Assembly: GCF_021869535.1 (NCBI RefSeq) | Contig: NW_026262679.1 | Coordinates: forward strand, 92,839,982 to 92,903,981 | Length of the DNA: 64,000 nt | From: Mytilus californianus | Lineage: Eukaryota | Reading direction: 5' to 3' | Part shown: positions 1-42,976 of the stretch, piece after piece | How positions within the stretch are numbered: the stretch's first letter is position 1 | Layout of the letters: every line of letters begins with the position of its first letter | Translations under genes and position numbers: made by a program | The notes under the pieces: model-generated | Database searches by the model: none | What the model was told of the DNA's origin: nothing | Seen by the model: the letters and a program-made list of their open reading frames with translations, nothing else

Positions 1-1900
1 TTATGATGTACATGTCAGTCTTGCAGGTTTTATTTGACCTTGACCTCATTTTCACGGTTCATTGCTCAGTGTTAAGTTTTTGTGTTTTGGTCTGTTTTTC
101 TAAAACTATAAGCAATAGGTCAACTATATTTGTTGTATGGAAGGATTGTAAGCTGTACATGTCTGCCTGGCATGGTTCATCTTACCTTGACCTCATTTTC
201 ATGGTTCATTGGTCAATGTTTAGTTTTCTTGGTTAAGTCTGTATCTTAGAAACTATAAACAATAGGTCAACAATATTTAGTGTATTGAATGATTGTAAGG
301 TGTACATGTATTTCTTGTTTGGTTTATATGATCATGACCTCATTTTCTTGGATCATGTCAAGTGTATGTAATAGTTGTAGTAAAGCTTTATATTTAGGAC
401 TATCAACATAATATCAATGATTAGTAAAGAAGGCGAGACATTTCAGCGTGTGCACTATTGGGGTTCATTCTTCAATGTTCAGTTTTTGTCGAGCCTGCGA
501 CTTTTGTCGCAGAAAGCTCGACATAGGGATAGCGATCCGGCGGCGGCTACGGCGGCGGCGGCGGCGTTAGCTAACTTCTTAAAAGCTTTATATTTTAGAA
601 GATGGAAGACCTGGATGCTTCATACTTTGTATATGGATGCCTCATGTTACGAAGTTTCCGTCAGTCACATGTCCAATGTCCTTGACCTCATTTTCATGGT
701 TCAGTAACTACTTGAAAAAAAAGTTCAGATTTTTTGTAATGTTAAATTCTCTCTTATTATAAGTAATAGGATAACTATATTTGGTATGTGCGTACCTTGC
801 AAGGTCCTCATGCCCGTCAGACAGTTTTCACTTGACCTCGACCTCATTTCATGGATCAGTGAACAAGGTTAAGTTTTCGTGGTCAAGTCCATATCTCAGA
901 TACTATAAGCAATAGGTCTAGTATATTCGGTGTATGGAAGGACTGTAAGGTGTACATGTCCAACTGGCAGGTGTCATCTGACCTTGACCTCATTTTCATG
1001 GTTCAGTGGTTATAGTTAAGTTTTTGTGTTTTGGTCTGTTTTTCTTATACTGTATGCAATAGGTCTACTATATTTGGTGTATGGAATGATTGTAAGGTGT
1101 ACATGTCTAGCTGGCAGGTGTCATCTGACCTTGACCTCATTTTCATGGTTCAGTGGTCAAAGTTAAGTTTTTGAGTTTTGGTCTTTCTTTCTAATACTGC
1201 ATGCAATAGGTCAGCTATATTTGGTGTATGGAATGATTGTAAGGTGTACATGTCTAGCTGGCAGGTGTCATCTTACCTTGACCTCATTTTCATGGTTCAG
1301 TGGTCAAAGTTAAGTTTTTGAGTTTTGGTCTTTTTTTCTAATACTATATGCAATAGTTCAACTATATTTGGTGTATGGAAATATTTTATGATCTATATGT
1401 CAGTTACGCAGGTTTTATTTGACCTTGACCTCATTTTCAAGGTTCATTGCTCAGTGTTAAGTTTTTGTGTTTTCGTCTGTTTTTCTTAAACTATAAGCAA
1501 TAGGTCAACTATATTTGTTGTATGGAAGAATTGTTAGCTGTACATGCCTGCCTAGCATGGTTCATCTGACCTTGACCTCATTTTCATGGTCATTGGTCAA
1601 TGTTTAGTTTACTTGGTTAATGTTAAGTTTATGTGACAGTTGTAATAAAGCTTTATATTTAGGACTATCAACATAATATCAATGATTAGTAAAGAAGGCG
1701 AGACATTTCAGCGTGTGCACTCTTGTTGTAATTAGGTCAGTTTCTCAGATGCTATAAGCATGATAAGCAAGAGGCTGACTATATTTGGTGTATGGAATGA
1801 TTGTAATATTTACATGTCTGTCTGGTACATGTAGGGTTCATCTGACCTTGACCTCATCTACATGGATCATTGACAATGTTTATTTTATGTGATACTTAAG
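1..1900. repeat. Satellite-like tandem array, unit about 150 bp. Core motif 'gaccttgacctcattttcatggttcag ... aggtgtacatgtc' recurs at about 36, 189, 340, 675, 830, 978, 1128, 1270, 1422, 1568 and 1846. Variant units and a higher-order segment lie at 410-720.
   Basis: Direct reading shows about 12 units in register, spaced about 145-152 bp apart, with 80-95% identity between neighbours. The ORFs at 3-236 and 417-707 lie inside the array and are artefacts. Confidence 0.85.
539..567. repeat. (GGC)n microsatellite embedded in a satellite variant unit
   Basis: The run 'cggcggcggctacggcggcggcggcggcg' is visible. It produces the poly-Ala stretch of the spurious ORF 417-707. Confidence 0.9.
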
Positions 1901-6975: not shown

Positions 6976-7039
6976 TAATTAAGGTGCCATTATTAATGCA
7001 CATGCATATAGAATTCTTGCATATTTTTATGCCTCCACC

Positions 7040-7300
7040 CTAGGCAACAGGGGCATTAAGTGTTACCCTTGACCGTTCGTCTTTCTGTCCTTCTGTCCGT
7101 CCCATTTTTTGTTTCCGCACTCTAACTTAAGTTTGCCTCATGCAAATTTTATGAAACTCATACACAATGCTAAGAACCAAAACTTGCAGACAGAGATCGA
7201 ATTTGGGCAGTGAGTCATTTACCCTTCTAGAATTATGCCCCTTTTTAACATGGAAAATTGCAAAGCTTGAGCAGGGGCATTTGTGTCCTCAGACAATTTC
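7040..7300 (+). mobile_element. Solo copy, without internal tandem array, of the same non-autonomous family as the 5' flank of the composite elements at 16260 and 40226. Shared motif 'ttccgcactctaacttaagtttgcc...tatgaaactcatacacaatgct...gaatttggg...gcaggggcat'.
   Basis: It shares motifs with 14240-14480 and with 16390-16440 ('ttttcgcactctaactttagtttaagtgaatgg'). The GTC-rich stretch 'cgtctttctgtccttctgtccgtcc' parallels the (GTC)n tract of the composite element. Confidence 0.5.
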
Positions 7301-10300
7301 TCCTTTTATTATTTGAATCTTTCATGTTGCTGTTTATAGGAGAGTTTGAAGTTTAGTCATATCAGAACTAGGGACAGGAAGATCTGATAACCTTTTGTAA
7401 GACATTTCTGTTCCTGTCAATATATGGTCAAATGCTTCATTCTTTTTGCAGAAACAGTCTGATTTCATTGTACATAATTCTTTTGTGTGCTTTTTGTTAT
7501 TCAACTGGCGAGCATTAAAAAATATGGAGGATTGAGATCATTTAAAATATAGCTTTAACCTACTAAATGTTCATGTGCCTCTCAGAAACCTCATCAGTGT
7601 TTGTCACATGTTTGCCAATGTGATACAGCTCCACAAATGACTTCGTTACATATCCTCAGATAAGGGATATGTTTCCAATGTTCAAATATTCTATAAGGAA
7701 TTATTACTTTATATTTTAAATAGCACATATAAGGGGACACTGCCTATATGTATAAATTGTATTCAACACTTAATATTACTGGAATATAGAATCCTGGACA
7801 ACATCATGATTCTGCATAAACTGTTACTTAAATGGATAAGTTCTTGGACATTTTTCGTTCAGTAGGGAAGTCATTGAAATTGTTATGATCTTCATTTATT
7901 TGTAATTATGACTGTTTATAAATTTTTCTTTGTATATACATTGTTTTGGTATACTGGTGAAATTGTATAAATGTATACAGCTTTAAGCATTACATTTTTA
8001 TATGAAAATACTCAAATAGTTCATTGTCATAATTCAGCCCTGCAAGGAATAAATACCTGGATTTATACTCTTTCATGTGAAATAGTTGCACAGAATTAAC
8101 AAAACTTGTAATTTATTTGAAATGTACTGTATAGTATTGAATTTGAGTTTGACTCTTTTAAGCCATACATGCCAAATAATACACTAATACACTATACATG
8201 CCAAATAATACACTACATTCAGTTGAAGGTTTGATATCTTCCGAAGGCTACAAACACATATTTTACTATAGATCTTCAAGGTCATATATCATATATACTG
8301 TAGTCACCGTTATTTGCAGTGTACCTTTTTTTTTTGTAATTCAATAATAGGTTAAGTGACTATCAGCATGATCAGCACATACAGTATAAGTCAGCTGTAG
8401 GTATTATGTTGTATTTATATTTACACATAGTTCCTGGTTGTTTTTTTTTGGCCTACATGTGCTGGAATAAATCATTTTTTTTCAATGGGTTGGAATTAAG
8501 ATACATTTTAAATCTTTTGTAATCAACTGAGTTTTTTTTTTTTGTGTATAGAAGCCCAGTTTTGATGTTTTCAAATGTGAAATCCATATGAACAAGCTGA
8601 TTGAAATTTATAGGTAATGAAAGCGTGACAATCAGGACATTAATAAAAGTGCTTTTAATTTGAAGAAAATAAGGTGCATTGTATAAATGCTCGTGCATTG
8701 TTCTATGCATCTACCGTACAGTTCCAGCATGTGTGTTAGACATTTAATATCTGATTTTATTGTCAAGCATACCGGTATATAATCATCATTTAAAAATAAT
8801 TTGTTATTTAATTTACATTTTTGAAGACCTTGAAATTATTTAAATAAAATTTAACATGTTTATAATTTGCCTTTTAGATATATAACATCTAGACAGATTT
8901 CCTGGCGGCAATATTTTGAAATTATTTATTCATGATAGTGACCTATACCTTCAGGCGCACAAAAGTTTTTGTAAGCTATCAAAAAGTTTCATGTTAAGAA
9001 TTTTCCTGAAGTTTGTTGTGACCAACTACCGTAAAAAAATTAAACCTTTTTAAATGTCACCAGTTTCATAATATAGTCTGGTAAATTTGTTTTATTTTCT
9101 AAAAATAGCTTAAATATGATATATTTATGAGACATTAAGCTTAAGTTATTTGCTACTAGTGTTAAAAGTTATTTGCCACTAGTGTTAAGAGTTGTTCATA
9201 TGTTCATGCATCAGACTTAAGCTTTTATTTGACACTAGGAACCGCAATGAGTTTATTCACAAAATGTAGTGATAACATCATGAAATCGAAATGCAGACAG
9301 TAAATATAAGAAGATGTGGTATGAGTGCCAATGAGACAACTCTCCATCCAAGTCAAAATTTATAAAAGTAAACCATTATAGGTCAAAGTACGGTCTTCAA
9401 CACGGAGCCTTGGCTCACACCGAACAGCAAGCTATAAAGGGCCCCAAAAATTACTAGTGTAAAACCATTCAAACGGGAAACCAACGATCTAATCTATATA
9501 TAAAAAACGAGAAACGAGAAACATTTATGAACCACATCAACAAACGACAACTACTGAACATCAGATTCCTGACTTAGGACAGGTGCAAACAATTGCAGCG
9601 GGTTTAAACGTTTTAATGGTACCAAACCTTCACACACAAAATGCACACATGTGGCTGCATGGATATTTTTTTGTGGGAATTGCAAAATTGCACAAATTTA
9701 ATAATGATAATATGATTCTATATTAAAAAAGTGTAGCACATTTTAGGCTAGTCTTACAACTAATCTTCCTGGAGTCCCTCATGAAATACAGTACAAAAAA
9801 ATAAAGCATGGGGAAAACAAGAACAATCATGATGATTGGTTTATTTTGTTGCTTGCTTTAGTCCAATGAAAATAGATCCTGGAGGAATCCTCACACAACT
9901 ATAATTATGTAAATTGTATGATCCTGCAAGGGCAATTGATATTGACCTAAGGATAGAATTTACTTAAAGTCATTAATAACCCTTTGATTGCTGCTGGTAT
10001 TCAGGGGTTAAAAACCGTAGAGTGCCAAAAGCTTAGCTTTTGATTTGAAAATTAAATTGGAAAATGTCATAGATCTTAAAGGAAGCATATCAATTGTGCA
10101 AATTCAATGTTTGCCATCTTGAAGAAGTTCTGCTTGGATGGATGACGGGTGTTAGCTCAATTACTTTACTGACCTTACTTTTTTTTTTAAATTGATTATA
10201 GTAACAGGGTTGCAAAAAGGGGTCCTGATCCTTAAATTATTAAAAACTTTTTAAAAATCTACAGATAACACATTTTGTTGACAATGACTTTATCCTACAC

Positions 10301-11959: not shown

Positions 11960-12640
11960 TTCTTGGATATGACCATTCTCTTTGACCTCATTTTCATGGT
12001 TTAGTGACTGCTACTAAAAACTGTATAGTTTATGCATTTTTTTTTTTGTCCTGTGAATTTCTCACTTATTATGAGTAATGGGATAATATTTGGTCTATGT
12101 AATCCTTGCTAGGTCTTCATGTCTGTCAGACAGGGTTCACCTGACCTCAACCTCCATTCATTGATCAGTGATCAAGGTTAAAGTTATGTGATTAGGTCCG
12201 TTTCTCAGATACTTTAAGCAGCAGGTCAACTATAGTATAAGTGGTTTATGGAATGACTGTAAGATCTACATATCAGACTGGCAGGTTTTATCTGACCTTG
12301 ACCTCATTTAACATAGTTCATTGGTCGATGTTAAGTTTTTGTGTTGTGGTATGTATTTCAGATACTATAAGCAATAGGTCATCAATATTTGGTGTATGTA
12401 GTGATTGTAAGGTTACATGTTTGTCTGGTAGGTATCTATTAACCTTGGCCTTATTTTCTTGTTTCATTTGTCAATGTTAAGTTTTTGTGTTGTGGGTCTG
12501 TTTCTCAGATCTATACTATAAGCATAAAGTCAATTATATTTGGTATATGGAATTATTTTAGGATGTGCATGTTGGTCTGGCTGGGTTCATCTGACCTTGA
12601 CCTGATTAACTTAGATCATTGATCAGTTTATGTGATACTT
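11960..12640. repeat. Second array of the same roughly 150-bp satellite as 1-1900, about 4-5 units. It includes a duplicated higher-order segment homologous to 580-920.
   Basis: 'gacctcattttcatggtttag' occurs at 11985, with related units at 12150, 12295, 12430 and 12595. The segments 11890-12230 and 580-920 align block-by-block. Confidence 0.8.
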
Positions 12641-13212
12641 GTAGTAAAACCTCATCTTAAACATGTTAAAGACTCAACATAAAATCCATCAAGATCATTT
12701 AAGCAGAATTATTGCACATTTTGTCATGCTGGTGCCTTTTATTTATCAGAATTTAAAATTAGTTTTGCTGCCCTTGTCGGCAATTGTTCTTACTAGCTCA
12801 TTTTAGTATCAACACTCTAAACAATGCAACAATAATCTATCAATGGGAGAATATTAACATTATACAATAATTTTAATAAATCAACATTTAGAAATTTCTT
12901 AATCTTAGAGAGTTATGCATAAAAAGAGTCTAGGCCATATTAAAAGAAACATAAGTAATTAACATATATTAGCCTGTCCATAACAAATAAAAATCAATTC
13001 TAACACCAAATTTTTTTTCGATTGATGATTCTTGAAGAATATTATTCTCAATAGTAAGAACAGCTTCTGCTTTCTGGAAATGCAGTCTTTGTCTTGTACC
13101 TATAACCATACATCCATACATACAAAGTTTTGATTATTAACTTTATTTCCATTAAAAAGTCAATGGTCAATGTAATAAAAAGAATAAAACTCATCGAAGA
13201 ATTCAAATATTT

Positions 13213-14239: not shown

Positions 14240-14480
14240 AGCGCTATTTTTTATGCCCCCACTGTTCTATACTATAGTCCTGGAAAAATTGCTGAATTTT
14301 TTGTTTTTGCTCTCTAACTTTAGTTTGCCTGAACCAAATGTTATGAAACTTATACACAATGCTTATTACAATAAAACACAGATCAAGTTTGAATTTGGGT
14401 GGCGTCACTTTTACAGTTCTTTAGTTATGTTTCTTTATAATGTTATATGCAAGCAGGGGCATCATCTGTGTTCCATGGAC
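14240..14480 (+). mobile_element. Second solo copy of the 'ttttttatgccccc...ctctaactttagtttgcc...tatgaaacttatacacaatgct...gaatttggg...gcaggggcat' non-autonomous family (see 7040-7300)
   Basis: It aligns motif-by-motif with 7040-7300. The ORF at 14253-14567 is an artefact. Confidence 0.5.
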
Positions 14481-15519
14481 ATATTCTCCATTTATTTATT
14501 AAATTTTTATTTGTTTTGTTATTTAACTTTCTTCCATGCACATATATCTAATCTTTTACAACCCTGATAAACATGGTAAGTGTCAAAAAATTGAAATAAA
14601 CCATACATGTATTTAATAAAACAATATTCCAAAGTTTCCAGGAACTTCAATATAAGTGCAAAACCATATTCCATAATATCTAACAATTTCATCATAACCA
14701 TTGTTAACATGTAAATTAAATGGATTTTATTTTAAGGAAATGTATTGGTTGAATAGGTAGACAGGGGAAAAGGATATTTAGTGGATATACATATAGAACA
14801 TAGATGACTTTCACATTCCTGCATTTACCCAAACATTCTTAATGTCACTATGCTAATATTATTACATCACAGTAAGAGTCTATGTTCACAATGTTATTAA
14901 TGCCAATCAACCTCTGGATAAAGTAAATTTAAAGGAACTAAAAATTTGTCTATTTCCAAATATACTCGGAAATAACTGTAATTTTTGCAACGCAGGAATA
15001 GTGCTATTATTACTGTTTTTCATCTGGGTAGTCGTAATCCATTGGAAGGTCTTCCAAGAACTCTCAACTTTAAGCAAGATCAGTTTTGCCCTTATGGTCT
15101 ACTGTTATAACTAAAAAATTTACACAATCGTTTTGAAGCTACTTGTACAGTAGTTGTCAAAAAAAAAGCATAAATTATGAATACACCCTGCTGTGTTGCC
15201 AAATAGTAAGGTTTCCAAGTCTTAACTAAAGTTATAAGCATTTAAATTCCATTCATGGAATTAGACTGACCTTGGAACAAAGAGTACGTATCCATTAGTC
15301 TTAGCAGATGTGATGTATTTGTTTAACATTATGACTTTCACCAGAGGTTATTCAATCCTTGCACAGGGAGAGTTAATGTAAATCTAAAATCTCTCTGGAC
15401 ATGAGAGAGATTATCCAGAATGAAAGCTATTATCAAGATATGAAATATTTACTGGCAACATGGAATTCTATATTGATTTTTCCTTGTTCCATGCATTTGA
15501 AGTAAATGGTTCACAAAAT

Positions 15520-15720
15520 TGTAATTTTTTTATGGTACACGTTGCATATACATGTACTAGTAATAAAATTATGGTGGATATAATAATATATTTAACCATA
15601 GATGAAAGAATAAGTTGTCCTAAATAGATGATAATGATTTTTTGATTGAATATAAGAATTTATTCTGTTGACAGTTTGTAAGTTCAAATAAATGTGGGCC
15701 AAGATGAGAGTCTTTCTTTT
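15520..15720 (+). repeat. Roughly 200-bp segment directly repeated at 19030-19230 ('tacatgtactagtaataaaattatggtggatataataatatatttaaccatagatg...gttcaaataaatgtgggccaagatgagagtctttc'). The pair brackets the composite element region.
   Basis: Both copies are read directly with about 90% identity and the same orientation. They lie 3.5 kb apart and enclose 15780-18960. Confidence 0.75.
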
Positions 15721-15779
15721 AAAAGTATGGCAAGTTTTGTTATGTGGGATAATTTCATCACAAAGGCCACCTATAGACC

Positions 15780-16200
15780 ATTTTTAGCTCACCTGGCCTA
15801 AAAGGCCAAGTGAGCTTTACTCATCATCTCCTCTGAAACTACGGGGCCAAATTTAACCAAACTTGGCCACAATCATCATGAGGGTATCTAGTTTAAAAAA
15901 TGTGTCTGATGACCCTGCCTGCCAAACAACATGGCCGACATGGCTAAAAATAGAACATAGGGGTAAAATGCAGTTTTTGGCTTATATCTCTGAAACTAAA
16001 AGCAAATGAGGTAAAAATGTTTATCAGGTTTAGATCTATCTGCCCTGAAATTTTCAGACGAATCAGACAACCTGTTGTTTGGTTGCTGCCCCTGAATTGG
16101 TAATTTTAAGGAAATTTTGCAGTTTTTGGTTATTATCTTAAATATTATTATAGATAGAGATAAACTGTAAACAGCAATAATGTTCAGCAAAGTACGATCT
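15780..16200 (+). mobile_element. Repeat unit beginning with a 13-bp-stem hairpin 'tagctcacctggcc-taaaa-ggccaagtgagct' (15787-15818). A related copy in the same orientation lies at 18590-18960 ('gggccaaat..aaccaaacttggcc..atcat..agggtatct..gatgaccctgcc..acatggccg.catggctaaaaata').
   Basis: The two segments share a colinear set of motifs. The hairpin is read directly, with one mismatch in the stem. Confidence 0.5.
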
Positions 16201-16259
16201 ACAAATAAGTCAATATGACCAAAATTGTCAATTGACCCCTAAAGAAGTTATTGTCCTTT

Positions 16260-16323
16260 ATAGTCAATTTTTCGTAAATTTTTATACGACCGCAAAAAAA
16301 TTTTTGTGGTCGTATATTGGTAT

Positions 16324-16380
<57 letters not shown>

Positions 16381-18580
16381 CGGCGTCGTCCGAAGACACA
16401 TTGGTTTTCGCACTCTAACTTTAGTTTAAGTGAATGGATCTCTATGAAATTTTACCATAAGGTTCAATACCACAAAAGGAAGGTTGGGATTGATTTTGGG
16501 GGTTATGGTACCAACAGTAAAGGAATTAGGGGCCAAAAGGGGCCAAAAATAAGCATTTTTGTAACTTCCAGACATAACTTGTGTGTTAGTGTATGGATCT
16601 CTCTGACATTGTACCACAAGGTTCCATATCACAAAAGGAATGCTGGGATTGATTTTGGGGGTAATTGCCTCAAGATTTTAGGAATTAGGGGCCAAAAAAG
16701 GGGCAAAAAACAAGCATTTTTCTAGTTTCATGATAATAACTTGTGTGTAAGTGTATGGATCTTTCTGAATTTGTACTACAAGGTTCCATATCACAAAGGG
16801 AAAGCTGGAATTGAGTTTGGGGGTAATTGCCCAAAACGTTTAGGAATAAGGGGCCAAAAAGGGGCCAAAAATAAGCATTTTTCTAGTTTCCAGACAATAA
16901 CTTGTGTTAAAGTGTATGGATCTCTCTGAAATTGTACCACAAGGTTCCATATCACACAGGGAATGCTGGGATTGATTTTGGGGGTAATTGCCTCAAAATA
17001 TTAGGAATTAGGGGCCAAAAAAGGGGCAAAAAACAAGCATTTTTCTAGTTTCATGATAATAACTTGTGTGTAAGTGTATGGATCTTTCTGAAATTGTACT
17101 ACAAGGTTCCATATCACAAAGGGAAAGCTGGAATTGAGTTTGGGGGTAATTGCCCTAAATGTTTAGGAATTTGGGGCCAAAAAGGGGCCAAAAAACACAT
17201 TTTTTTTAGTTTCCAGACAATAACTTGTGTTCAAGTGTATGGATCTCTCTGAAATTGTACTGCAAGGTACCATACCACAAAGGGAAGGCTGGGATTGAGT
17301 TTGGGGGTGATGAATCATAAGAGAGTTCAAAAGATTTGGGGGGGGGGGATTTTTTTTTTTCCTTTTTTTTCTTTTTTTCCTTTTTTTTTTCTTTTAAAAT
17401 TTTCCATTTTAAGTTGGTTATTTCTGATTTATATTTAAAAGCAAATAATAATGATATGGTAGGAGATACACACCAAACAGGATGTGTAAATTTTTATATA
17501 ATAAGTATTGTGCAATAGCAAGAAATTTTCAATTGCACAGTATTGCACAATAGCAAGAAATCTTCAATTGCACAGTATTGCGCAATAGCAAGAAATCTTC
17601 AATTGCACAGTATTGCGCAATAGCAAGAAATATCCAATAGCACAATATTGCGCAATAGCAAGAAATTGTTAATTGTACAGTATTGCGCAATAGCAGGAAA
17701 TATTCAATTGCACAGTATTGTGCAAAAGAAGATACTTCGTATAAATTGCTTATTTCTTGACCAATTTCAATGGGGTTTTATTCTTGAATTCTTGGGGTTC
17801 TTTAATATGCTGAATCTAACCGTGTATTAAGTTTTTGGATTTTGGGCGCCGTTTTTAAATTGGTCCACATTGAGGTCCAAAGGGTCCAAAATTAAACTTT
17901 GTTTGATTTCATCAAAAATTAAATTATTGGGGTTCTTTGATATGCCGAATCTAACCGTGTATTTAGATTCTTAATTTTTGGTTCCGTTTTCAAATTGGGT
18001 CTACATTAAGGTCCAAAGGGTCCAAAATTAAACTTAGTTTGATTTTAACAAAAATTGAATTCCAGGGGTTCTTTGATATGCCGAATCTAAACATGTATTT
18101 AGATTTTTGATAATGGGCCCAGTTTTCAAGTTGGTCCAAATCGGGGTCCAAAATTAAACTTTGTTTGATTTCAACAAAAATTGAATATATGGGGTTCTTT
18201 GATATGCTGAATCTAACCATGTATTTAGATTTTTGATTTTTGGGCCCCGTTATCAACTTTGTCCACATTGAGGTCAAAAGGGTCCAATATTAAACTTTGT
18301 TTGATTTCATCAAAAATTGAATTCTTGGGGTTCTTTGATATGCTGAATCTAACCATGTATTTAGATTTTGGATATTGGACCATAATAGGTGAATGTCCAA
18401 TTTAAAATTTTTAAGTTCTTAGACCACATTCATTCTGTGTCAGAAACCTATGCTGTGTCAAATATTTAATCACAATCCAAATGCAAAGCTGTATCAAGCT
18501 TGAATGTTGTGTCCATACTTGCCCCAACTGTTCAGGGTTCGACCTCTGCGGTCGTATCAAGCTGCGCCCTGCGGAGCATT
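16260..18580 (+). mobile_element. Composite non-autonomous 'pearl'/Helentron-like element, copy A, laid out as follows:
- 5' hairpin 'tatacgaccgcaaaaaaatttttgtggtcgtata' (16283-16318)
- (GTC)19 (16324-16380)
- about 5.7 units of a roughly 160-bp tandem repeat (16400-17325)
- G/T homopolymer block (17334-17400)
- 7 units of a 32-bp repeat 'cacagtattgcgcaatagcaagaaatcttcaattg' (17500-17720)
- 5 units of a roughly 131-bp repeat (17760-18400)
- conserved 3' terminus '...ccccaactgttcagggttcgacctctgcggtcgtatcaagctgcgccctgcggagc' (18520-18578)
   Basis: All sub-arrays are read directly, with 161-bp spacing between 16741 and 17064 over two units. The 3' motif 'tgcggtcgtata' is the reverse complement of the 5' 'tatacgaccgca'. 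The same architecture recurs at 40226-44190. The ORFs at 16199-16399 (poly-Arg), 16232-16429 (poly-Ser), 16306-16725 (poly-Val), 16741-16929 and 17064-17252 are repeat artefacts. Confidence 0.7.
16324..16380. repeat. (GTC)n microsatellite, 19 units
   Basis: Read directly. Confidence 0.95.
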
Positions 18581-19554
18581 TTATTTAAATCTTTTACAAA
18601 AATCTTCTTCACTTAATCTACTGGGCCAAATAGAATTAAACTTTGCCACAATTTTCAATAGGGTATCTTGATTGCAAAATGTATCCGATGACCCTGCCAT
18701 CCAACTGACATGGCCGCCATGGCTAAAAATAAAATTTGGGGGTTCACTATAGAAGTCTAAGGGAAAATCAAAAAACAATTTCAAATGGTCTCAACTTGAA
18801 AACTAATTTAAATAATGATAAGGGGTCTTCAGTAACTATTGTAAGACTAAAATAGGATGACCTGCTTTTAAATTATTTAATTTAACTAATGGGCCAAATT
18901 AAACCAAACTTGGCCTCAATCATTATTAGGGTATCTAATACTGTTTATTATGATTTTAACCTAATTTTACATGATTTCCAATAACACAGTCGATACAGGT
19001 GAGCAACACAGGCTCTTGAGAGCCTCTAGTTTATGGTACACTTTGCAAATACATGTACTGGTAATAAAATTATGGTGGATATAATAATATATTTAACCAT
19101 AGATGCAAGGATAAGTTCTCCTAAATAGATGATAATGATTTTTTATTGAATATTTATATATATATAAGTGTTTGTTCTGGTGACAGTTTGCAAGTTCAAA
19201 TAAATGTGGGCCAAGATGAGAGTCTTTCATTTGACAGTGGTGAAACAGCACAACATAAGAACAAACTATAAAAATCAGTTGAAAAAAGCTTTAACTCATC
19301 AGATCAATACAAAGCAGGAAAACATCAAACAAAAACACAGACTGGACGTGGCAGGGTATTTATCCATCCCTCATCCCTAACAACAAAAAGACACCAAGTA
19401 CAGAAGTCAGTTTTGCTGATTCACTTGCAATAGAAAAACTCAAGTTTTGAAAAGATTCCAATAGACAACAACCCAACAACAAAATGAAACAAAAGAGATT
19501 ACTAGAGATCAGCATAGGGTCTTTAGTACCAGAAAAGTGTTCTAGTTCAGACTA

Positions 19555-21574: not shown

Positions 21575-21782
21575 CACTGTGTATCATCACCACCGGATAT
21601 AGGTAACCTTGGCCTGGTTCTCTGTTCATTGTCTAAGAAAAACTACATTACTGTACATATACCAAAATATTGGTACCCAGGTAGCTATACACTGGTACGT
21701 GTACAGTAATGTTGTATTTCTTAGACAATGAACAGAGAACCAGGCCAAGGTTACCTATATTGGGTGGTGATGATACACAGTG
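21575..21782. repeat. Long near-perfect palindrome with arms of about 90 bp and a spacer of about 30 bp. Example arm: 'caccaccggatataggtaaccttggcctggttctctgttcattgtctaagaaaaactacattactgtaca'.
   Basis: The left arm 21575-21662 is the reverse complement of the right arm 21697-21782, with very few mismatches. Confidence 0.8.
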
Positions 21783-24700: not shown

Positions 24701-26039
24701 GCCCAGTGGTTGGGTTGTTTTCAGGATGAGGTTCCTTAGTAATTCTGTTTATAAGTCACTGATAACAGATATTTGGAATATATGTCTGTCTGTTTTATGT
24801 CAAATGACCCTGACGGTCTGACCTCACACTCTAATGTCACAGTGGGTTTTGAAGAGGTCACATGTAGTTTGAGGATGAGATCTGTTCCTCAGTAAGTACA
24901 CATGATAGGACAACAATATTTTGTACCAGTATGTGGTATAGTTGTGACCTCAATTTCAGGTTTCAGTGAAATTATTAGGTTCTAAGACAGTGTTTGTCTC
25001 TCAGTAAATGTCAGTAATTGGTCAACTATATTTGATCTTTAGAATCATTGTTACAATGTATGTGTAAATGTCTGTCCAACAGGTTTAACCTGACCTTGAC
25101 CTCATTTTCATGGTTCAGTGAATCAGATTTTGCTTATTAATTCTGTTACTTACTTGTTAGATTCAATACCTGTAGTCTATTATATGTTCCTGTTTCAACA
25201 TATCATTCAGTCATAATCATTTACATGAGACATTTCTGTGTGTCCTCTTTCGTTATTAATTTGTTTTTATGGTTATTATAATATTGTGGTTTTCTTGTAG
25301 GCATTATGATCTATCTTTAATGACATTTTTTTGCTGCATGTGATAATTGTTAAATTTACTAAGCTAGATTTGTTTGCATTTAGGGTTTCCGCAATTTTTT
25401 TGTTTATTCATAAGGCTTAATTAGTATGAGTCATTTACATGTATGGTTAATATGAAAAAATTGTGGACAGACAACATTTCATCATGTATCCAAAGTTGTA
25501 TTTTGAAATTCTTTGTTTGATAAGTACATTTTAATCTAATTTAAACTTAATTATCATAAAATTGTCATCTTCAGTGACAAACAGAGATATAGTAAACTAG
25601 AAATAATGTCCTTGTTACAATTTAATGCACATATTTTATTTATTTATAAACTGCATATTTCACCAATATGAGTCAAGCATATATAACACAATTACATGTT
25701 ACAGTAGCAGTACTTGAAGCTACAATGTATTCAGTTTGTAAAGGGACCAGAAGATATTTCTGATGCTCAGCTGAAAATGATTGATGAGAATTTATCAAGT
25801 CGGATAAGTCCAGTTGCAGGAATCCATCTGAAAGTGTATGTTTGCAAACATTTAAAGAGAATTTTTGCTATCTTAGTTTATAAAAGCTATTTTTACATTG
25901 TCTGAATATCAGAATCCAGTCTCAGACTATATTACAGCACTTTTTTAAGAAGAAAGACAACTCTAGCAGATTTGTTCATTTATGAACTATAAGTTACAGT
26001 CTAATGGTCACATGGTCACTTATGAAGTTGCTTCTTAAG

Positions 26040-26700
26040 TATTGTGTTCTGAATGGCTGGGAATAAATAAACTCATCATAAATACCAGGATTGAAATTTT
26101 GTATTTGGGCCAGACGCGTGTTTCGTCTACAAAAGACTCATCAGTGACGCTCGAATAAAAAAAAGTTAAAAAGGCCAAATAAAGTATGAAGTTGAAGAGC
26201 ATTGAGGACCAAAAATTCCTAAAAGTTTTGACAAATACAGCTAAGGTAATCTATTCCTGAGGTAGAAAAGCCTTAGTATTTCAAAAATTCAAAGTTTTGT
26301 AAACAGTTAATTTATAATTATGACCATATTAATGATAATTCATGTCAACAGACAAGTGCTGACTACTTGGCTGGTGATACCCTCGGGGAATAAAAACTCC
26401 ACCAGCAGTGGCATCGACCCAGTGGTTGTAAATAAACTCATCATAGATACCAGAATTGAAATTTTGTATTTGCGCCAGACGTGTGTTTCGTCTACAAAAG
26501 TCTCATCAGTGACGCTCGAATCAAAAATAGTTAAAAAGGCCAAATAAAGTATGAAGTTGAAGAGCATTGAGGACCAAAAATTCCTAAAAGTTTTGACAGA
26601 TACAGCTAAGGTAATCTATTCCTGGGGTAGAAAAGCCTTAGTATTTCAAAAATTCAAAGTTTTGTAAACAGTTGATTTATAATTAATATTTAAAATATAG
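26040..26700 (+). repeat. Two direct tandem copies (about 26046-26330 and 26375-26690) of a roughly 300-bp interspersed repeat containing 'tcgtctacaaaagactcatcagtgacgctcgaat'. The family is also present inverted at 46900-48130.
   Basis: Blocks read directly are near-identical. Examples are 'ataccaggattgaaattttgtatttgggccagacgcgtgtttcgtctacaaaag' and 'gaggaccaaaaattcctaaaagttttgacaaatacagctaaggtaatctattcctg'. Confidence 0.75.
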
Positions 26701-28949: not shown

Positions 28950-29800
28950 GATACTATACTTCTTGAGATGCAATCTTTTATTAGTACCCTAGAAGGGGAC
29001 TTTAGGTTTTCACTCTGTCTGTCTGTCTGTCTGTTCATCCGTTAGTCCGGGAAATCAGTTTTCCACACTTTTTTTCTTCATGCTTGAATATATCGATTTG
29101 ATATTTGGTGTATTGTTTTATCATGACAAGTTACAGATCAAGTTCGAATTTTGTTCCGGTCTGATGATTTTGTGCAGAGTTATGGTTCTTTGACATAGAA
29201 AATTCACTAAAATAATCAGTTTTCTGCACTTTTTTTTGTCATTCTTGAAGATAATGATTTGATAATTGGTATATAGTTTTATCATGACAAGTTACAGTTC
29301 AAGTTGGAATTTTGTTCTGGTCAGATGATTGTGTGCAGAGTTAAGGTCCTTGGACTTAGAAAATTCACTCAAATAATCAGTTTTTCACACTTTTTTTCGT
29401 CATGCTTGAAGATATTGATTTGATGGACTTAGAAAATTCACTCAAATAATCAGTTTTTCGCACTTTTTTTCGTCATGCTTGAAGATATTGATTTGAAAAT
29501 TATTATATTGTTTTATCATGACAAGTTACAGATCAAGTTGGAATTTTGTTCTGGTCTGATGATTTTGTGCAGAGTAATGGTCCTTGGACTTAGAAAATTC
29601 ACTTAGATAATCAGTTTTCAACACTTTTTTTCGTCATGCTTGGAGATATTGACTTAATATTTGTTATATAATTTACACCATGACAAGTTATAGATCAAAT
29701 TAGAATTTTGTTCCAATACAATGAATTTTTAACCGATAGGGGACTATGTATTGCCATGCAATACTCACAGAATGCTTGATTTTATCTGGTATCTAAGAAT
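28950..29800 (+). mobile_element. Non-autonomous element with about 4.5 internal tandem units of about 185 bp ('cagttttccacactttttttcttcatgcttgaagatattgatttgat...gacaagttacagatcaagttcgaattttgttccggtctgatgattttgtgcagagttatggt'). It begins with a 'cccctagaaggggactttagg' hairpin and a (CTGT)5 tract, and ends '...aaccgataggggactatgtattgccatgcaatac'.
   Basis: The units are read directly. A second copy with about 2.5 units and the same terminal motifs lies at 44275-44830. Confidence 0.65.
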
Positions 29801-38552: not shown

Positions 38553-41493
38553 TACATGAATGCTTTGGGTTCTGAATCTTTGAAATTAAAACAAGTCATA
38601 TGATTCAAATTTTTCATATCATAAATGAAGAAAAAACAAGCCTTTACTTGAATAATTGAAACTACCTTAATTTAAAGTTGACATTGACAACTTGTCAGGA
38701 TTATTATATCTTGAGATTTTCATTTAGTAATAATATTATTATGTTGTTTTCATTTGTTTGATTATGTTCATTTATCAGCAATCTAATAATTTAAAACCGT
38801 CCATGGGATGAAAATTATGCCATGCAAACTGGAGTAGGTTTTTATTTCCCTAAAGTTGGTAGATAACAATATGTGAATTAAAAAACAACCATGACAAAAT
38901 GTTGCCTTGGATTTGTTTTGCTAGAGAATGTACTGCACTTTTGTTTGGCTATGCCTTTCTGATGTTTAATTGAAATTGAAATTTTATCTCTCATAAAAGC
39001 ATTATGACCTTGAGAAGTCCTTGATTCTATATTTGAAATAATAGTAGGAAATATTACTTACTTCAGGTGTTTTCATGCAAGTACATTTTTTAAGAATTGT
39101 TTTTCAAAATAATTTAAAGAAAAAACTATGTATAAGTTGTTTCAGATTTTTTTTTTCAAAATACAAATGCCAAACAGTTACTGTTCTTGAATTAAAAGGC
39201 ATTATTCTATGTTATTGAACAAAAAGGAAATGAGAAGTACAATAAGGGGTTCAACACTCCCAAAAGATATTTTGTTTTTTGTTTTATTTAATGTATTTAA
39301 TATGTCAAAAATTTGTTATCAACAGACTTGCCAAACACCAAGAGAGATGAATATTATTTGGAGGCAGAATTATAGTCAATTTTAGGTTTGAATTGAACAG
39401 TCGATTTGATTTGATGTAGTAAAATGTTCTCATACGGAGACAGTTGTAAGATACACAGAAATTACACCTGATAATCAAGCAAAACAAATATAAGTCATTG
39501 CAAATTTGTTTGTTAGTTTTTGATGAATTGAAATACATTTACAAGATTTTAACAGATGTTTTATGAAATGGCAGAGTTGTATTGTTAAACTTTTCTATTT
39601 TCTTGTAGATAGGGTAATGTAATCTTTTGTGTCCCATACTCCAGATGATTTCTTTGAGATTATTTTATTAATGTCATTATTCAAAAATGTTTTTCCATTG
39701 TATTTACACTTGAGAACAAATTATAAGGTAATTAAAAAGAATTCTATAGAAACAGATGAGGGGGTCTTAACATTTTAACATAAATATAATGTATAATGGA
39801 ATGAGAAATCAAATAATTTATCTCTAGTTCTGTTTAAAAACTTTAAACAAATATCCCAAAAATTTGAATCAGATGTACATGAGTAATTTTGAAAATTGAA
39901 TCCTCCTGAAACAAAACAACACAGAATGGATTGCTCTGTATTGGAGTTAGGGAACCAGTTTCTATGAAGGACTAGGGATTACATTGTCCTGTCTAATTGT
40001 AGATCAGAATTAATGGATGGTGTGTTAGATTGCTCAGTGCTGGCTATAGCAGCATACTTATTGTCACATTAAAATGTTCTGAGTATTAAATAAAGTATAA
40101 TAAATATATCGACAGTTCACTTTTATTTTTAATATCACTAAAAGGAGACATGGGGTAAATTTCAATGAGACAGCAACCCATGTATTTAAGTGAAACAAAA
40201 ATAAACATTTAGCGGTCATAATTTTTATACAACCGCAAAACAAACTTTTGTGTTCGTATAATGGTATCATGTCAGCGTCTTTGTCCGAAGACACATTTAG
40301 TTTCCGGTCAATAACTTTAGTTTAAATGAATGGATCTCTTATGAAATTTTACCAGAAGGTTCAATACCACAAAAGGAAGGTTGGGATTGATTTTGGGGGT
40401 TATGGTACCAATAGTTTTGGAATTAGGGGCCAAAAACAAGCATTTTTGTAGTTTCAGGACAATAACTTGTGTGTAAGTGTATGGATCTCTCTGAAATTGT
40501 ACCACAAGGTTCCATATCACAAAGGGAAGGCTTGGATTGAGTTTGGGGTAGTTGCCCCAAAAGTTCAGGAATTAGGGGCAAAAAAGGGGCCAAGAACAAG
40601 CATTTTTCTAGTTTCCAGACAATAACTTGTGTTTAAGTGTATGGATCTCTCTGAATTTGTAATACAAGGTTCCATACCTCAAAGGGAAGGCTGGGATTGA
40701 GTTTGGGGGTAATTACTCCAAGGAGGGGGTTCAAAAAGTTTGGAGGGGATTTTTTTTTCAAATTTAATTTGGGGTTTCATATTTTTTTCTTCGAGATTTT
40801 TCAAAATTTCAAATTTTGGGGGGGGGGGGGGGGGGGGGGGGGGGTGGATATTTATTTCATACTTTTTTTTTTTTTTCTAAAAATTTTCCATTTTTACATT
40901 GATTTATATATAAAAGCAGCAAATACTGATGTGGCAGGAGATACACACCAAACAGGGTGTGTAAATTATTATATATAACAGATTAACAGTATTCCGCAAT
41001 AACAAGAAATCTTCACTTGCATAGTATTGCGCAATAGCAAGAAATCTTCAATTGCATTGCACAGTATTGCGCAATAGCAAGAAATCTTCAATTGCACAGT
41101 ATTGCGCAATAGCAAGAAATCTTCTATTGCACAATAGCAAGAAATCTTCAATTGCACAGTAATGCACAATAGCAAGAAATCTTCAATTGCACAGTATTGC
41201 ACAATAGCACATTATTATACGACCGCAAACAATTTTTGAGGTTGTATATTGGTATGATGTTGGCGTCTTCGTTGTCGTCATCCGATGACACATTGGTTTT
41301 TGCACAATAACTTTAAGTGAATGGATCTCTATGAAATATTACCACAAGGTTCAATACAACAAAAGGAAGGTTGGGATTGATTTTGGGGGTTATGGTACCA
41401 ACAGTTAAGGAATTAGAGGCCAAAAATAAGCATTTTTCTAGTTTCCAGACAATAACTTGTGGAACAGTGTATGGATCTCTCTGAAATTATACC

Positions 41494-42693
41494 TTTTTTT
41501 CTTTTATTCTCATAAAGCCAATGCATTACATCAGTACAGAGATAACAACAATAACTATTTACAATATATACAAAACAAGGAGAGAGGTTACAGAAGTCAC
41601 TAGCCAGGAGGACAAACAAAAGTATTAACATTTTTTATAAATAAACAAAATTTCTTCAGGACTGGTTTTCGTGTACTCGACATAAGTTCCGAGAATTTAA
41701 ATGTATTATGTCGTTGTACAAAATAGGAGGATAAATACTCTGTACGTTTTTGGGCGAAAAAAGTACATTCAAATATATAGTGATATTCGTCACCAATTTG
41801 TCGATTGTTACATTGATGGCAAACACAGTTTTCTCTCAATATATTTTTCCTGTTTCAATCAGCAATTTGTTATTAGTTGTTCGAAATCGACAAAGAACAA
41901 CGGCATCTTTAAAGTCCAAAATATTAAAATATTCCTCAAATTCCCAGTTTTTCTTAAAAATTTTGTAGTTTATAGCTTTTGATGAATTTTGAATAAGGGA
42001 ATTCCAATTCTGAAGAAACTGGTCTAATAATCTTTGCTTTATAACAGTTTTTAACCAATCTTTATCTATAAAATTTTGTGTTTCCCATATATATGAGAAA
42101 CCACGATCTTGAAATATTTTTTTGACAAATAGAATCCATTTATTCTGCATGTTATAATGAGCATTCATATGGCGAGAAAGTTGATACAATATAAAGGAAA
42201 ACTTTGCTTGTTTGCCGGAAATCAAATTTGCCCAAAATAATACTGCTTGAACTTTTATATCTATGTCAACCGGATGGCGACCTAGTTCCCCGTAAACCAC
42301 ATAATTTGGTGTTGAGGATTTCAGATTTAAAAGTAATTTACAGAATTTTAAATGTATCTTTTCTAATACCTCATTATTACTAAAACCCCATACTTCGCAC
42401 CCATACAACAGAATGGGCTTGACAATTTTGTCAAAAAGATCTAGCTGACATTTTATGGAAAGCTGATACATCCTTCCCATTTTCAGGACTTCGTACATGG
42501 CTTTTAAGGCCGTATCGGATAAATGTTTTTTCGTCATATTAAAATTCCCTGTTTTAGTAAAAATAATTCCCAAATAGTTAAACTGCTTTACTATCTCAAT
42601 GTTAGTGTCATTGTAAGAAAATCTGAGATTTTTTGGCAAACGTCCAAAACCAAACACTAAAGCTTTGGTTTTGTCAACGTTTACTTTCAATTT
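41494..42693 (-). mobile_element. 5'-truncated non-LTR retrotransposon (LINE) inserted in the 160-bp repeat array. It retains the C-terminal RT (thumb) region and a CCHC-type zinc knuckle, and has a short poly(A) tail, seen as tttttttt at 41494-41500 on the + strand.
   Basis: The minus-strand ORFs at 41836-42759 and 41600-41839 carry RT-like C-terminal motifs. The tail 'CHQCNNRQIGDEYHYIFECTFF' fits the C-x2-C-x~12-H-x4-C pattern of CR1/L2/RTE-type LINE ORF2 ends. The 160-bp repeat 'ctctgaaattatacc' stops at the poly-T and resumes at 'accacaagtttgtataccacaaaggga' at 42694. The first 25 or so residues of the 307-aa ORF are repeat-derived read-through. Confidence 0.75.
41600..42680 (-). pseudogene. 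LINE ORF2 fragment (RT C-terminal part plus CCHC), 5'-truncated, with one frameshift between 41836 and 41839
   Basis: Two overlapping ORFs in different frames. There are no N-terminal RT motifs (Y/FxDD is not seen) and no endonuclease, so it is a dead copy. Confidence 0.7.
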
Positions 42694-42924
42694 CCAAACC
42701 ACAAGTTTGTATACCACAAAGGGATGGTTAGGATTTGCTTTGGGAGGGTTATGACTCAAACTGTTTAGGAATTAGGGGCAAAAAACGGGGAAAAACAAGG
42801 GTGTCCTGGTTAATGGACAAATACTTTAGTACAAAACATAATTTAAAGCAGTGTAAGGGAGGTAATTCAAATAATGGTTAATGAACAATTAAGACAATTT
42901 AAAAGCAGTGTAAGGGAGGTAATC

Positions 42925-42976
42925 CAAATACAGAGTTTTGATTACCTCCCTTACACTGCTTTTAAATTATGTTTAA
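42925..42976. repeat. Perfect 22-bp-stem hairpin 'gcagtgtaagggaggtaatccaaatacagagttttgattacctcccttacactgc'. A third direct copy of the arm lies at 42848-42869.
   Basis: Read directly. Confidence 0.8.

Follow-up and report, generated by a model that had tools for sequence, protein, structure and literature searches.

A mussel element carrying three tandem arrays shows the structural hallmarks of non-autonomous Helentrons

We have analyzed a single bounded, non-coding element of ~2.3 kb, here called copy A, which lies at positions 16278-18585 (forward strand) of a 64-kb stretch of Mytilus californianus DNA; the whole of that stretch is referred to below as the window. Copy A is very probably a non-autonomous Helentron (HINE), of the class to which DINE-1, oyster pearl and Cg_HINE, clam DTC84 and mussel MgE belong. 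The structural hallmarks of non-autonomous Helentrons are all present in it: subterminal repeats, a 5' hairpin, a 3' stem-loop, and a microsatellite that follows the left flank and is itself followed by central tandem repeats. This anatomy matches the published definition of HINEs (PMC4067079, PMC7492417) and bears out the preliminary description of this DNA, which had likened the element to pearl, CvA and other Helentron-associated repeats.

Anatomy of copy A

All parts of the composite element that had been recognized from the letters of the sequence are present in the order proposed. The approximate 5' boundary is a terminal A/T string, ATTTT (16278-16282), from which point the 5' ends of copy A, of two further copies in the window (B and C) and of a metagenomic fragment (L004) are conserved; their consensus onset is A-T-T-x-T-T-A-T-A and the DNA upstream is unrelated. 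The 5' palindromic hairpin (16283-16316) is formed by a subterminal inverted repeat, TATACGACCGCA (16283-16294), and an internal complement, TGTGGTCGTATA (16305-16316). Its arms, measured as 16283-16298 and 16301-16316, are 94% complementary, and the DNA fold has an energy of -12.8 kcal/mol (z = -5.4). The hairpin is weaker in the other copies (z = -1.3 in B and -3.5 in C); it can be written as the pattern TATACRACCGCAAA-N8-14-GTATAWTGGTAT. Next comes a (GTC)n microsatellite (16324-16390), with the pure (GTC)19 that had been described at 16324-16380 and degenerate units after it. Short or degenerate GTC/GTY runs occupy the matching position in B, C and L004.

The central array, previously given a period of 160 bp, has a period of 161 bp and extends over 16402-17311 (16416-17308 according to TRF), with 5.6 monomers (A1-A6) delimited by TRF, nhmmer monomer boundaries and an identity matrix. 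TRF also reports a higher-order period of 323 bp. The array starts with a core-like monomer, A1, continues with a dimer present in duplicate (A2-A5) and closes with a truncated monomer, A6. A linker (17312-17503) follows, in which the poly-G/T block noted earlier appears as poly-G and then poly-T(C) (~17337-17395), succeeded by ~100 bp of unique AT-rich spacer; collinear regions are found in copy B (40723-40985) and in the metagenomic fragment L005. Two more arrays had been detected correctly, albeit with periods of 32 and 131 bp that our analysis revises to 35 and 136 bp. The 35-bp minisatellite (17504-17732) has 6.6 units, every one with the perfect palindrome TATTGCGCAATA, and is also found in copy B (40986-41209 and 43684-43763) and L002. 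The 136-bp array (17784-18378; TRF) has 4.5 monomers and a higher-order period of 262 bp, and recurs in copy B (43800-44098), L002, L004, L009 and L010.

The conserved 3' region (18379-18585) is 94-97% identical to that of L002 and 84% identical to that of copy C. It contains a local palindrome, CGACC..GGTCG (18540-18554), the 3' subterminal inverted repeat TGCGGTCGTATC (18547-18558), a short stem-loop GCTGCGCCCTGCGGAGC (18561-18577) and a terminal TTTTATT (18579-18585); its 3' block can be written as CCAACTGTTCAGGGTTSGACCTCTGYGGTCGTAT. The 3' end is GC-rich, as had been stated, with 56% GC in its last 66 bp and 32% in the window. Folding predicts the stem-loop, GCTGCG(C)..(G)CGxAGC, for A, B, C and L002, and it is conserved in L003, which makes 5 of 6 3' ends; the fold of L001 does not recover it. 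The stem has only 3+3 bp, includes a conserved mismatch and shows no covariation.

The subterminal repeats form a pair of 14 nt with 93% complementarity (16281-16294 and 18547-18560) around a 12-bp core. In copy A, as in B and C, TATACGACCGCA lies 5 nt from the conserved 5' boundary and TGCGGTCGTATC 27 nt from the 3' boundary. The 3' motif had been called the exact inverse of the 5' arm; in copy A the match is 11 of 12 positions, and the exact form, TGCGGTCGTATA, occurs in L001-L003. With at most one mismatch the TATACGACCGCA 12-mer is found 6 times in the window, against 0.06 expected. When two mismatches are allowed, the 5' arm, the hairpin arm and the inverted 3' arm each occur exactly once in every one of A, B and C.

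Copy A is itself an insertion within a HINE-like element of a different family (15781-19035, forward strand), which has a 5' hairpin AGCTCACCTGGCC..GGCCAAGTGAGCT, a 3' end CAGGTGAGC and a palindrome AGGCTCTTGAGAGCCT.

Copies of the family in the window and elsewhere

Copy B (40221-44184, forward strand) belongs to the same family and repeats the module order of copy A. Its 35-bp array is broken by copy C (41211-43683, forward strand) and resumes beyond the 3' end of the latter. Copy C has both the hairpin and the conserved 3' end, and between them what is left of the GTC run, ~2 monomers of the 161-bp array and a different 3' region containing poly-G; neither the 35-bp nor the 136-bp array is present in it. 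Within its 161-bp array lies a sequence foreign to the element, a 5'-truncated fragment of a non-LTR retrotransposon covering the C-terminal side of the reverse transcriptase (41494-42696, reverse strand), past which the array continues in register at 42697. The ORF of this fragment (41836-42759) has homologues with PF00078, one of them named as a Mytilus edulis reverse transcriptase. The copies are old, A and B being 71-88% identical, and give no sign of present-day activity.

Similarity between the copies ends sharply at 16277/78 and at 18585. The same termini and modules were also found at unrelated loci: in eight metagenome-assembly fragments (L001-L005 and L008-L010) and in one gene model of Mytilus galloprovincialis. 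L001-L003 were recovered through the 3' motif, and a spurious ORF of the 161-bp array, used as a query, yielded 5 short contigs with further copies. When ORFs of the 136-bp array, the 35-bp array and the 3' end were joined into one query, the gene model was the sole match; it has a 136-bp monomer and then the 3' end, ordered as in copy A. L004 has a full 5' end adjoining spliced-looking coding DNA, and L003 carries another array, with a period of ~80 bp, upstream of the same 3' region. No copy was seen in ~93 kb of other mussel-type genomic DNA (five stretches around reverse-transcriptase homologues, including Mytilus edulis GCA_905397895.1), and scans of viral contigs with 3 patterns and of prokaryotic genome contigs with 2 patterns gave no match.

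These distributions bear on whether the element is mobile at all. Satellites that merely lie side by side, with A and B produced by local segmental duplication, would be in keeping with the location of A, B and C within 28 kb of one another and with the lack of copies in the ~93 kb just mentioned. We find this explanation scarcely credible: A, B and C are bordered by unrelated DNA that reaches to the very edge of the conserved termini, copy C sits inside copy B, and the same ends and modules are present on unrelated contigs of several samples and in the M. galloprovincialis gene model.

Class assignment

The flanks of A, B and C, the three complete copies, have no direct repeat that is shared or consistent, so that the absence of a target-site duplication that had been anticipated holds for these three. 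With the ends set by conservation, the flanks read ..cgtaa|..|taaatc for A, ..gtcata|..|ggaatt for B and ..tagcac|..|gggcaa for C; the adjoining bases are thus A|T, A|G and C|G, with no clear T^T. The one target that can be reconstructed, that of C within the 35-bp array of B, is ambiguous by up to ~6 nt. The ends of the element are themselves T-rich (ATTTTT... and ...TTTTATT or ...GGTT). A chimeric empty site built from the flanks of copy A matched only itself and the internal repeat of the host element, and no unoccupied site for A was found in the DNA searched.

The 12-bp inverted repeat near either end could also be taken as the mark of a cut-and-paste MITE, with inverted repeats, a dinucleotide AA/TT duplication and a DDE transposase. 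Pearl, DTC84 and DINE-1 were all first classified as MITEs. Both ends being A/T-rich, a TT or AA duplication is possible at single-base resolution, and an AA target-site duplication was proposed in the older literature for such an architecture (PMC3879986). The repeats of copy A are, however, subterminal and asymmetric, with ~5 nt outside the 5' repeat and ~27 nt outside the 3' repeat, and these outer ends are unrelated, while a 5' repeat within a hairpin and a 3' repeat followed by a stem-loop constitute the Helentron pattern. Since, in addition, A, B and C have no consistent flanking duplication and this architectural class has been reassigned to Helentrons (PMC4067079, PMC7492417), we regard a MITE as very improbable.

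Assignment to the Helentrons does not extend to the canonical Helitrons, which have a 5' TC, a 3' CTRR, a hairpin ~11 bp from the 3' end, insertion between A and T, and no inverted repeats (PMC4067079). The element begins with ATTTTTATAC and ends in ...GCATTTTATT or ...CACCTGGTT, and it has inverted repeats; canonical Helitrons were thus rejected. With them falls the Helitron-like A^T insertion of the preliminary description, which implied a 5' TC and a 3' CTRR where the ends are ATTTTTATAC... and ...TTTTATT or ...CCTGGTT.

No ORF for a Rep, helicase or endonuclease protein is present in the window, and no Rep/helicase partner was found elsewhere, scans of the available collections yielding only short metagenome fragments. 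Only two ORFs in the window reach 150 aa, both without a Pfam domain; the homologues of one of them are reverse transcriptases, which identifies it as a LINE fragment and not a Helentron protein. A SINE would have a head derived from tRNA, 5S or 7SL with a pol III promoter, and an A-rich or simple-repeat tail with a target-site duplication. ARAGORN found no tRNA-like sequence in the window, and in 15700-19100 none of the Rfam families rose above chance level; SINEs and structured RNAs were therefore rejected as explanations. A full-text literature search with six diagnostic oligomers returned chance primer matches only and no relevant paper.

Growth and origin of the arrays

The monomers of the 161-bp array are position-specific. 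The first monomers of the three copies (A1, B1 and C1) share 90-93% identity with one another and 77-83% with their own neighbours, and the last monomers A6 and B3 are 93% identical; this shows that the array travels with the element. Between these fixed ends, A2 and A4 are 93% identical and A3 and A5 97% identical, whereas the monomers of copy A are 78-91% identical to those of copy B, position-matched first and last pairs excepted. The array of copy A has thus grown in place, after insertion, by duplication of a dimer at 93-97% identity, in agreement with the earlier suggestion that arrays expand inside the element.

That suggestion had rested on two short elements, near 7040-7300 and 14240-14480, taken to be copies without arrays. 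They prove to be single-core HINE elements of another family (7022-7316 and 14245-14504), with the termini TTATGCCCCCAC...GCAGGGGCAT and only a ~105-bp core homologous to the copy A family. What had been read as a 'flank' shared with it, cgcactctaac..., turns out to be where the first 161-bp monomer begins. The first monomers of A, B and C are matched by a profile built from the single-core family, with E = 3e-10, 5e-8 and 3.5e-5, respectively. At least five HINE-like families are present in the window and three of them have a homologous core of ~105-160 bp in common, which supports the view that the central arrays derive from the core of the element itself and are not captured satellites. The 136-bp and 161-bp monomers give a local alignment with z = 2.0 and marginal collinear matches in reciprocal nhmmer searches (E = 0.085-1.9). 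The 147-bp arrays of the window (1-1686 and 12159-12650) have no detectable similarity to the 161-bp monomer.

Module order among lineages

Two orders of modules are seen among the copies. In A, B and L005 the order is 161-bp array, poly-G/T block, 35-bp array, 136-bp array and 3' end; in L002, L004, L009 and L010 it is 165-bp array, 136/139-bp array, 35-bp array, unique sequence with poly-G, and 3' end. Since lineages carry the same modules in different orders, whole modules appear to have been exchanged between copies. The family could thus be a modular carrier of several satellites (161/165, 136/139 and 35 bp, and the ~80-bp repeat of L003), whose arrays are exchanged, permuted or dropped among lineages that keep Helentron-type ends, by recombination or by rolling-circle template switching. 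We put this forward as a possibility only, and a doubtful one.

The same differences in order can be accommodated if copy A is a mosaic, its 5' half (hairpin, GTC, 161-bp array and poly-G/T) and its 3' half (35-bp and 136-bp arrays and 3' end) having come from two HINE lineages and been joined by recombination, gene conversion or rolling-circle template switching. Such an origin would be an alternative for the multiple arrays alone and leaves the HINE class untouched; we hold it tentatively, at somewhat less than even weight. The 136-bp array and 3' end of copy A are 83-97% identical to those of L002 and L004, whereas its 161-bp array reaches just 70-81%, a disparity that faster divergence of the 161-bp array could also produce. 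Copy C, which has the family termini and neither of the two 3' arrays, and L003, with its different array upstream of the same 3' region, also fit a mosaic. On the other hand, no internal termini or second hairpin were found inside copy A, and B, L005 and the M. galloprovincialis gene model all repeat the order of copy A, so that a mosaic, if real, must have formed once and then been transposed as a unit.

A model for the spread of the family

Under the HINE assignment, copy A, which encodes nothing, would be moved in trans by the Rep/helicase(/endonuclease) protein of a Helentron. This protein would recognize the 12-bp subterminal inverted repeats, the 5' hairpin and the 3' stem-loop, and copying would probably proceed by rolling-circle, single-strand transposition into A/T-rich DNA, leaving no target-site duplication. 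The entire interior moves with the element, from the (GTC)n and the 161-bp array through the poly-G/T block to the 35-bp and 136-bp arrays. Of these, the 161-bp array would have arisen by tandem duplication of the element's own ~160-bp core, of the kind seen in the single-core HINE families of the window. Its first and last monomer variants would stay fixed while internal monomers are gained or lost in place by unequal exchange or slippage, and whole modules would be swapped between copies of the family.

Bivalve genomes are unusual in that most of their satellite-like DNA consists of short arrays scattered in euchromatin, and passengers of Helentrons are the proposed carriers. Against this background the copy A family is a well-documented but ordinary instance of HINEs spreading satellite DNA. 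Copy A is a clean example from a mussel genome of a satellite-carrying HINE and refines the known picture rather than changing it; a single 64-kb window displays arrays travelling with an element, growth of an array after insertion, and copies inserted into one another and into other HINE families. If the modular-carrier reading were true, one family would assemble and spread a small 'satellite library', and would offer a tractable natural system for the study of how satellite repertoires are built.

Comparison with known systems

The closest parallels to copy A were drawn at the level of published architecture. Like copy A, the Cg_HINE elements of Crassostrea gigas (Vojvoda Zeljko et al. 2020, PMC7492417) have a left flank in which a few bases separate an 11-12-bp subterminal inverted repeat from its internal complement, a short microsatellite of degenerate GTC-type units, central arrays in which monomers of 140-180 bp mostly number fewer than 6, and a right-flank inverted repeat followed by a palindrome; they too lack a target-site duplication and are often inserted in other repeats. 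Copy A differs in having three arrays (161, 35 and 136 bp) and a homopolymer block where Cg_HINE has one array and exceptionally two, the 35-bp minisatellite lying outside the 100-500-bp range surveyed for Cg_HINE (PMC7492417). The earlier remark that copy A has more arrays than are usually described therefore stands as a matter of degree only, as HINEs with two consecutive arrays have been published (PMC7492417). At the same architectural level, the copy A family also differs from Cg_HINE in that array order varies between subfamilies.

DTC84, by its description, has the same succession of flank, microsatellite, up to ~5 core repeats and flank, and its array is similarly ordered, with monomer variants at fixed positions whatever the copy number. 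Unlike copy A it has a single array and an ACGG/ACGA tetranucleotide microsatellite, and it was taken for a MITE that duplicates an AA target site. The pearl elements of Crassostrea virginica (CvA, CvE and CvG) and MgE of Mytilus galloprovincialis resemble copy A, again by description, in their near-end inverted repeats and up to ~6 core repeats of ~160 bp. These core repeats resemble bivalve satellite DNAs, and pearl also has a microsatellite (PMC3879986, PMC7492417); MgE is reported to be without one (PMC3879986), in contrast to the (GTC)19 of copy A, and each pearl element has one type of array where copy A has three. The DINE-1 elements and other HINEs (Thomas et al. 2014, PMC4067079) share with copy A subterminal inverted repeats, 12-15 bp long in their case, with 2-4 nt outside the 5' repeat and tens of nt outside the 3' one, an internal repeat beside the 5' repeat, a microsatellite, central tandem repeats, a short 3' stem-loop, T strings at the boundaries and the lack of a target-site duplication. 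For that group autonomous Helentrons and a preference for TT targets are described; with ends set by conservation, the flanks of A, B and C have no clear T^T.

Structure and boundaries of the composite element

Copy A of the composite element lies at 16278-18585 on the plus strand, as do all of its parts, which were identified by direct reading of 16000-18900 and by Tandem Repeats Finder. The element opens with a 34-nt hairpin, TATACGACCGCAAAAA/TTTTTGTGGTCGTATA (16283-16316), whose arms are 94% complementary and which folds as single-stranded DNA at -12.8 kcal/mol (z = -5.4 relative to shuffled sequences). A pure (GTC)19 microsatellite follows (16324-16380), with degenerate units continuing to 16390, and then 5.6 copies of a 161-bp repeat (16416-17308) with a 323-bp higher-order period. 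Beyond these are a poly-G run and a T-rich run (~17337-17395), a spacer of ~100 bp, 6.6 copies of a 35-bp repeat (17504-17732), 4.5 copies of a 136-bp repeat (17784-18378) and a 207-bp 3' region ending at 18585, the final 66 bp of which are 56% GC, compared with 32% for the window. Every component listed in the preliminary description is present in the order given there; the two shorter arrays had been assigned periods of 32 and 131 bp, which these measurements correct. The 3' inverted motif, TGCGGTCGTATC (18547-18558), had been called the exact inverse of the 5' 12-mer and matches it at 11 of 12 positions. When extended, this subterminal inverted repeat pair is 14 nt long with 93% complementarity, and the 3' repeat itself sits within a small palindrome, CGACC..GGTCG. 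The 5' 12-mer occurs six times in the window with at most one mismatch, against 0.06 expected.

BLAST of 16200-18650 against the window located two more copies, B (40221-44184) and C (41211-43683). The modules of B and their order are identical to those of A; C interrupts the 35-bp array of B, which resumes directly after the 3' end of C. With at most 2 mismatches allowed, the 5' arm, the hairpin arm and the inverted 3' arm each occur exactly once in every one of the three copies. Alignment of the ends placed the 5' limit at A-T-T-(T/A)-T-T-A-T-A, five bases ahead of the 12-mer, and the 3' limit seven bases past ...GCGGAGCA; these last seven bases read TTTTATT in both A and B, ATTTATT in C and, outside the window, YCTGGTT, and the sequence outside the conserved ends is unrelated between copies. 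Copy A is a single unit that has defined limits and is repeated. At the boundaries set by alignment, A, B and C have no consistent direct repeat on their flanks, in keeping with the earlier expectation that target-site duplications would be absent. The only target that can be reconstructed is the junction of C in B, whose position is ambiguous by up to ~6 nt because the target (…AGTATT…) is A/T-rich, as are the ends of the element.

Copy C itself carries a 5'-truncated non-LTR retrotransposon fragment (41494-42696, minus strand) that cleanly interrupts one 161-bp monomer, the array being back in register at 42697. The 307-aa ORF of this fragment has hundreds of homologues, many with PF00078 and one bearing the name of a reverse transcriptase from Mytilus edulis.

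Copies outside the window and module order

A metagenome scan with a 25-nt 3' motif found three contigs (L001-L003). In all of them TGCGGTCGTATA is exact and the stem-loop region is the same, and the sequence downstream is unrelated. Spurious protein predictions on the 161-bp array led to five further contigs. The metagenomic copy L004, which adjoins apparent exons, has a complete 5' end: …aattttTATATGACCGC…GGTCGTATA, then (GTC)5, then the array. The prediction that copies elsewhere would have the same termini was thus borne out. A Mytilus galloprovincialis gene model contains a translated 136-bp monomer followed by the translated 3' end. This model and the Mytilus edulis homologue of the retrotransposon fragment in copy C mark the host as a mytilid-type mussel; no copy of the family was found in ~93 kb of other mussel-type DNA.

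The interior modules are permuted among these copies. In A, B and the metagenomic copy L005 the order is 161-bp array, poly-G/T, 35-bp array, 136-bp array, 3' end. In L002, L004, L009 and L010 a 165-bp array leads directly to a 136/139-bp array, followed by the 35-bp array, a unique poly-G-containing stretch and the 3' end. Copy C is without the 35-bp and 136-bp arrays, and L003 has a different array of ~80 bp. The 136-bp array and 3' end of copy A share 83-97% identity with L002 and L004, while its 161-bp array shares only 70-81% with theirs. This suggests that modules have been exchanged between lineages, although the uneven identity along copy A could alternatively reflect unequal rates of divergence. 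The L003 copy (~1445-1698 of that locus), in which the array with a period of ~80 bp stands ahead of the family's conserved 3' region, is a further sign of interchangeable interior modules. The 136-bp monomer may be a diverged 161-bp monomer; profile comparison of the two gave only marginal collinear matches.

Origin and behaviour of the 161-bp array

The monomer identity matrix shows that variants of the 161-bp monomer are position-specific across copies. A1, B1 and C1, which open the arrays of the three copies, are 90-93% identical to each other and 77-83% identical to their own neighbours, and the last monomers A6 and B3 are 93% identical; therefore the ancestral element already had an ordered array. 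Within copy A, A2 and A4 share 93% identity and A3 and A5 97%, and the array was therefore enlarged later by in-place duplication of a dimer, which agrees with the proposal that arrays expand inside the element.

Two short elements, at 7022-7316 (with a GTCY-type microsatellite) and 14245-14504, had been described as solo, array-less versions of copy A. They have 5' TTATGCCCCCAC, 3' GCAGGGGCAT and a small 3' palindrome of their own; since these ends differ from those of copy A, they belong to a separate family of non-autonomous Helentrons (HINEs). The 161-bp monomer profile matches both elements over ~105 collinear positions (E = 1.7e-5 and 5.6e-4), and the best matches of the reverse profile are A1, B1 and C1 (E = 3e-10, 5e-8 and 3.5e-5). 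Judged by these profiles, the single core is homologous to a 161-bp monomer. The flank said to be shared with copy A (cgcactctaac…) is thus where the first monomer begins. Together, the monomer pattern and the single-core homology favour arrays that would have been made from the element's own core and later altered in length locus by locus.

Other HINE-like families and repeats

At least five HINE-like families occur in the window. Copy A is nested in an element of another family (15781-19035) with different ends: a 5' hairpin, AGCTCACCTGGCC..GGCCAAGTGAGCT (15786-15816), and a 3' CAGGTGAGC with the perfect palindrome AGGCTCTTGAGAGCCT after it (19010-19025). Internal repeats of this host element (15823-15964 and 18603-18744) are ~78% identical, and its 3' end is also found in reverse orientation at ~40-81 of L003. 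This nesting and the number of families agree with reports that such elements are often inserted into other repeats (PMC7492417).

A third family (28977-29790 and 44283-44830) has a hairpin, AGTMCCCT..AGGGGACT, a 161-163-bp array, a 3' AGGGGACTA and the palindrome GTATTGCCAnGCAATAC, with (TCTG)5 at 29014-29034. Its second copy begins ~100 bp past the end of copy B. The monomer of this third family shows a weak relationship to the single-core family (E = 3.5e-4). A further family is arranged head to tail at 1-1985 and is also seen at 12159-12650, 24992-25146 and 56727-56813. After its 3' end, GGCGAGACATTTCAGCGTGTGCACT (~433-470), the next 5' hairpin, TCGAGCCTGCGAC..GTCGCAG..GCTCGA, comes within ~10 bp, with (CGG)n (538-566) and then a 147-bp array (833-1610) beyond it; further occurrences of the 3' end are at ~1695-1725 and ~1957-1985. 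Rolling-circle elements are able to yield head-to-tail copies.

A ~365-bp tandem repeat, with two units 96% identical, is present on opposite strands 21 kb apart (26064-26685 and 47437-48114). Each unit has a hammerhead-ribozyme-like core, CUGAUGAG...GACGAAAC, and is similar in this to retrozymes and Penelope-like elements with their minimal hammerheads. Rfam matches, all below the gathering score, are to Hammerhead_1 at 26107-26150 (minus strand; 24.2 bits, E = 0.0022), 26472-26515 (minus) and 47698-47741 (plus), and to Hammerhead_3 at 48062-48100 (plus; 22.5 bits). Two long, near-perfect foldbacks at 50478-50750 (129-nt arms, 91% complementarity, 15-nt loop) and 21575-21782 (103-nt arms, 89%, 2-nt loop) may be foldback or MITE-type elements.

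Classification and comparison with known elements

Several other classes were considered. The canonical Helitron features (5' TC, 3' CTRR and an A^T target) are all absent from the family's ends, and the Helitron-like A^T insertion signature that had been proposed does not apply. Copy A lacks the tRNA-like head and Rfam match of an element derived from tRNA or structured RNA, and has neither terminal inverted repeats nor a duplication of fixed length. ORF and Pfam searches of the window found no Rep/helicase ORF of an autonomous partner.

The anatomy of copy A matches the published definition of HINEs point for point, which upholds its initial comparison with pearl/CvA and Helentron-associated elements. 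In HINEs, subterminal inverted repeats of 11-15 bp lie near the 5' end and tens of bases inside the 3' end. The 5' repeat is accompanied by an internal repeat complementary to it, and the 3' repeat is followed by a palindrome. The interior holds a short microsatellite of the GTC type and central tandem repeats with units of 140-180 bp; strings of T mark the boundaries, and there is no target-site duplication (PMC4067079, PMC7492417). HINEs with satellite-like arrays are well documented in oysters, clams, Drosophila and Mytilus, in the last as MgE (PMC7492417, PMC4067079, PMC3879986). In the literature searched, we found no paper on the copy A family and none surveying HINEs in Mytilus. The ordered-array pattern has already been described for DTC84 (PMC3879986), and the copy A family shows the same. 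Copy A does have three arrays, as the claim of more arrays than usual would have it, but elements with two arrays have been published (PMC7492417). Three arrays and a microsatellite, in an order permuted among subfamilies, are an incremental extension of known HINEs, and the family is an addition of modest significance to that class.
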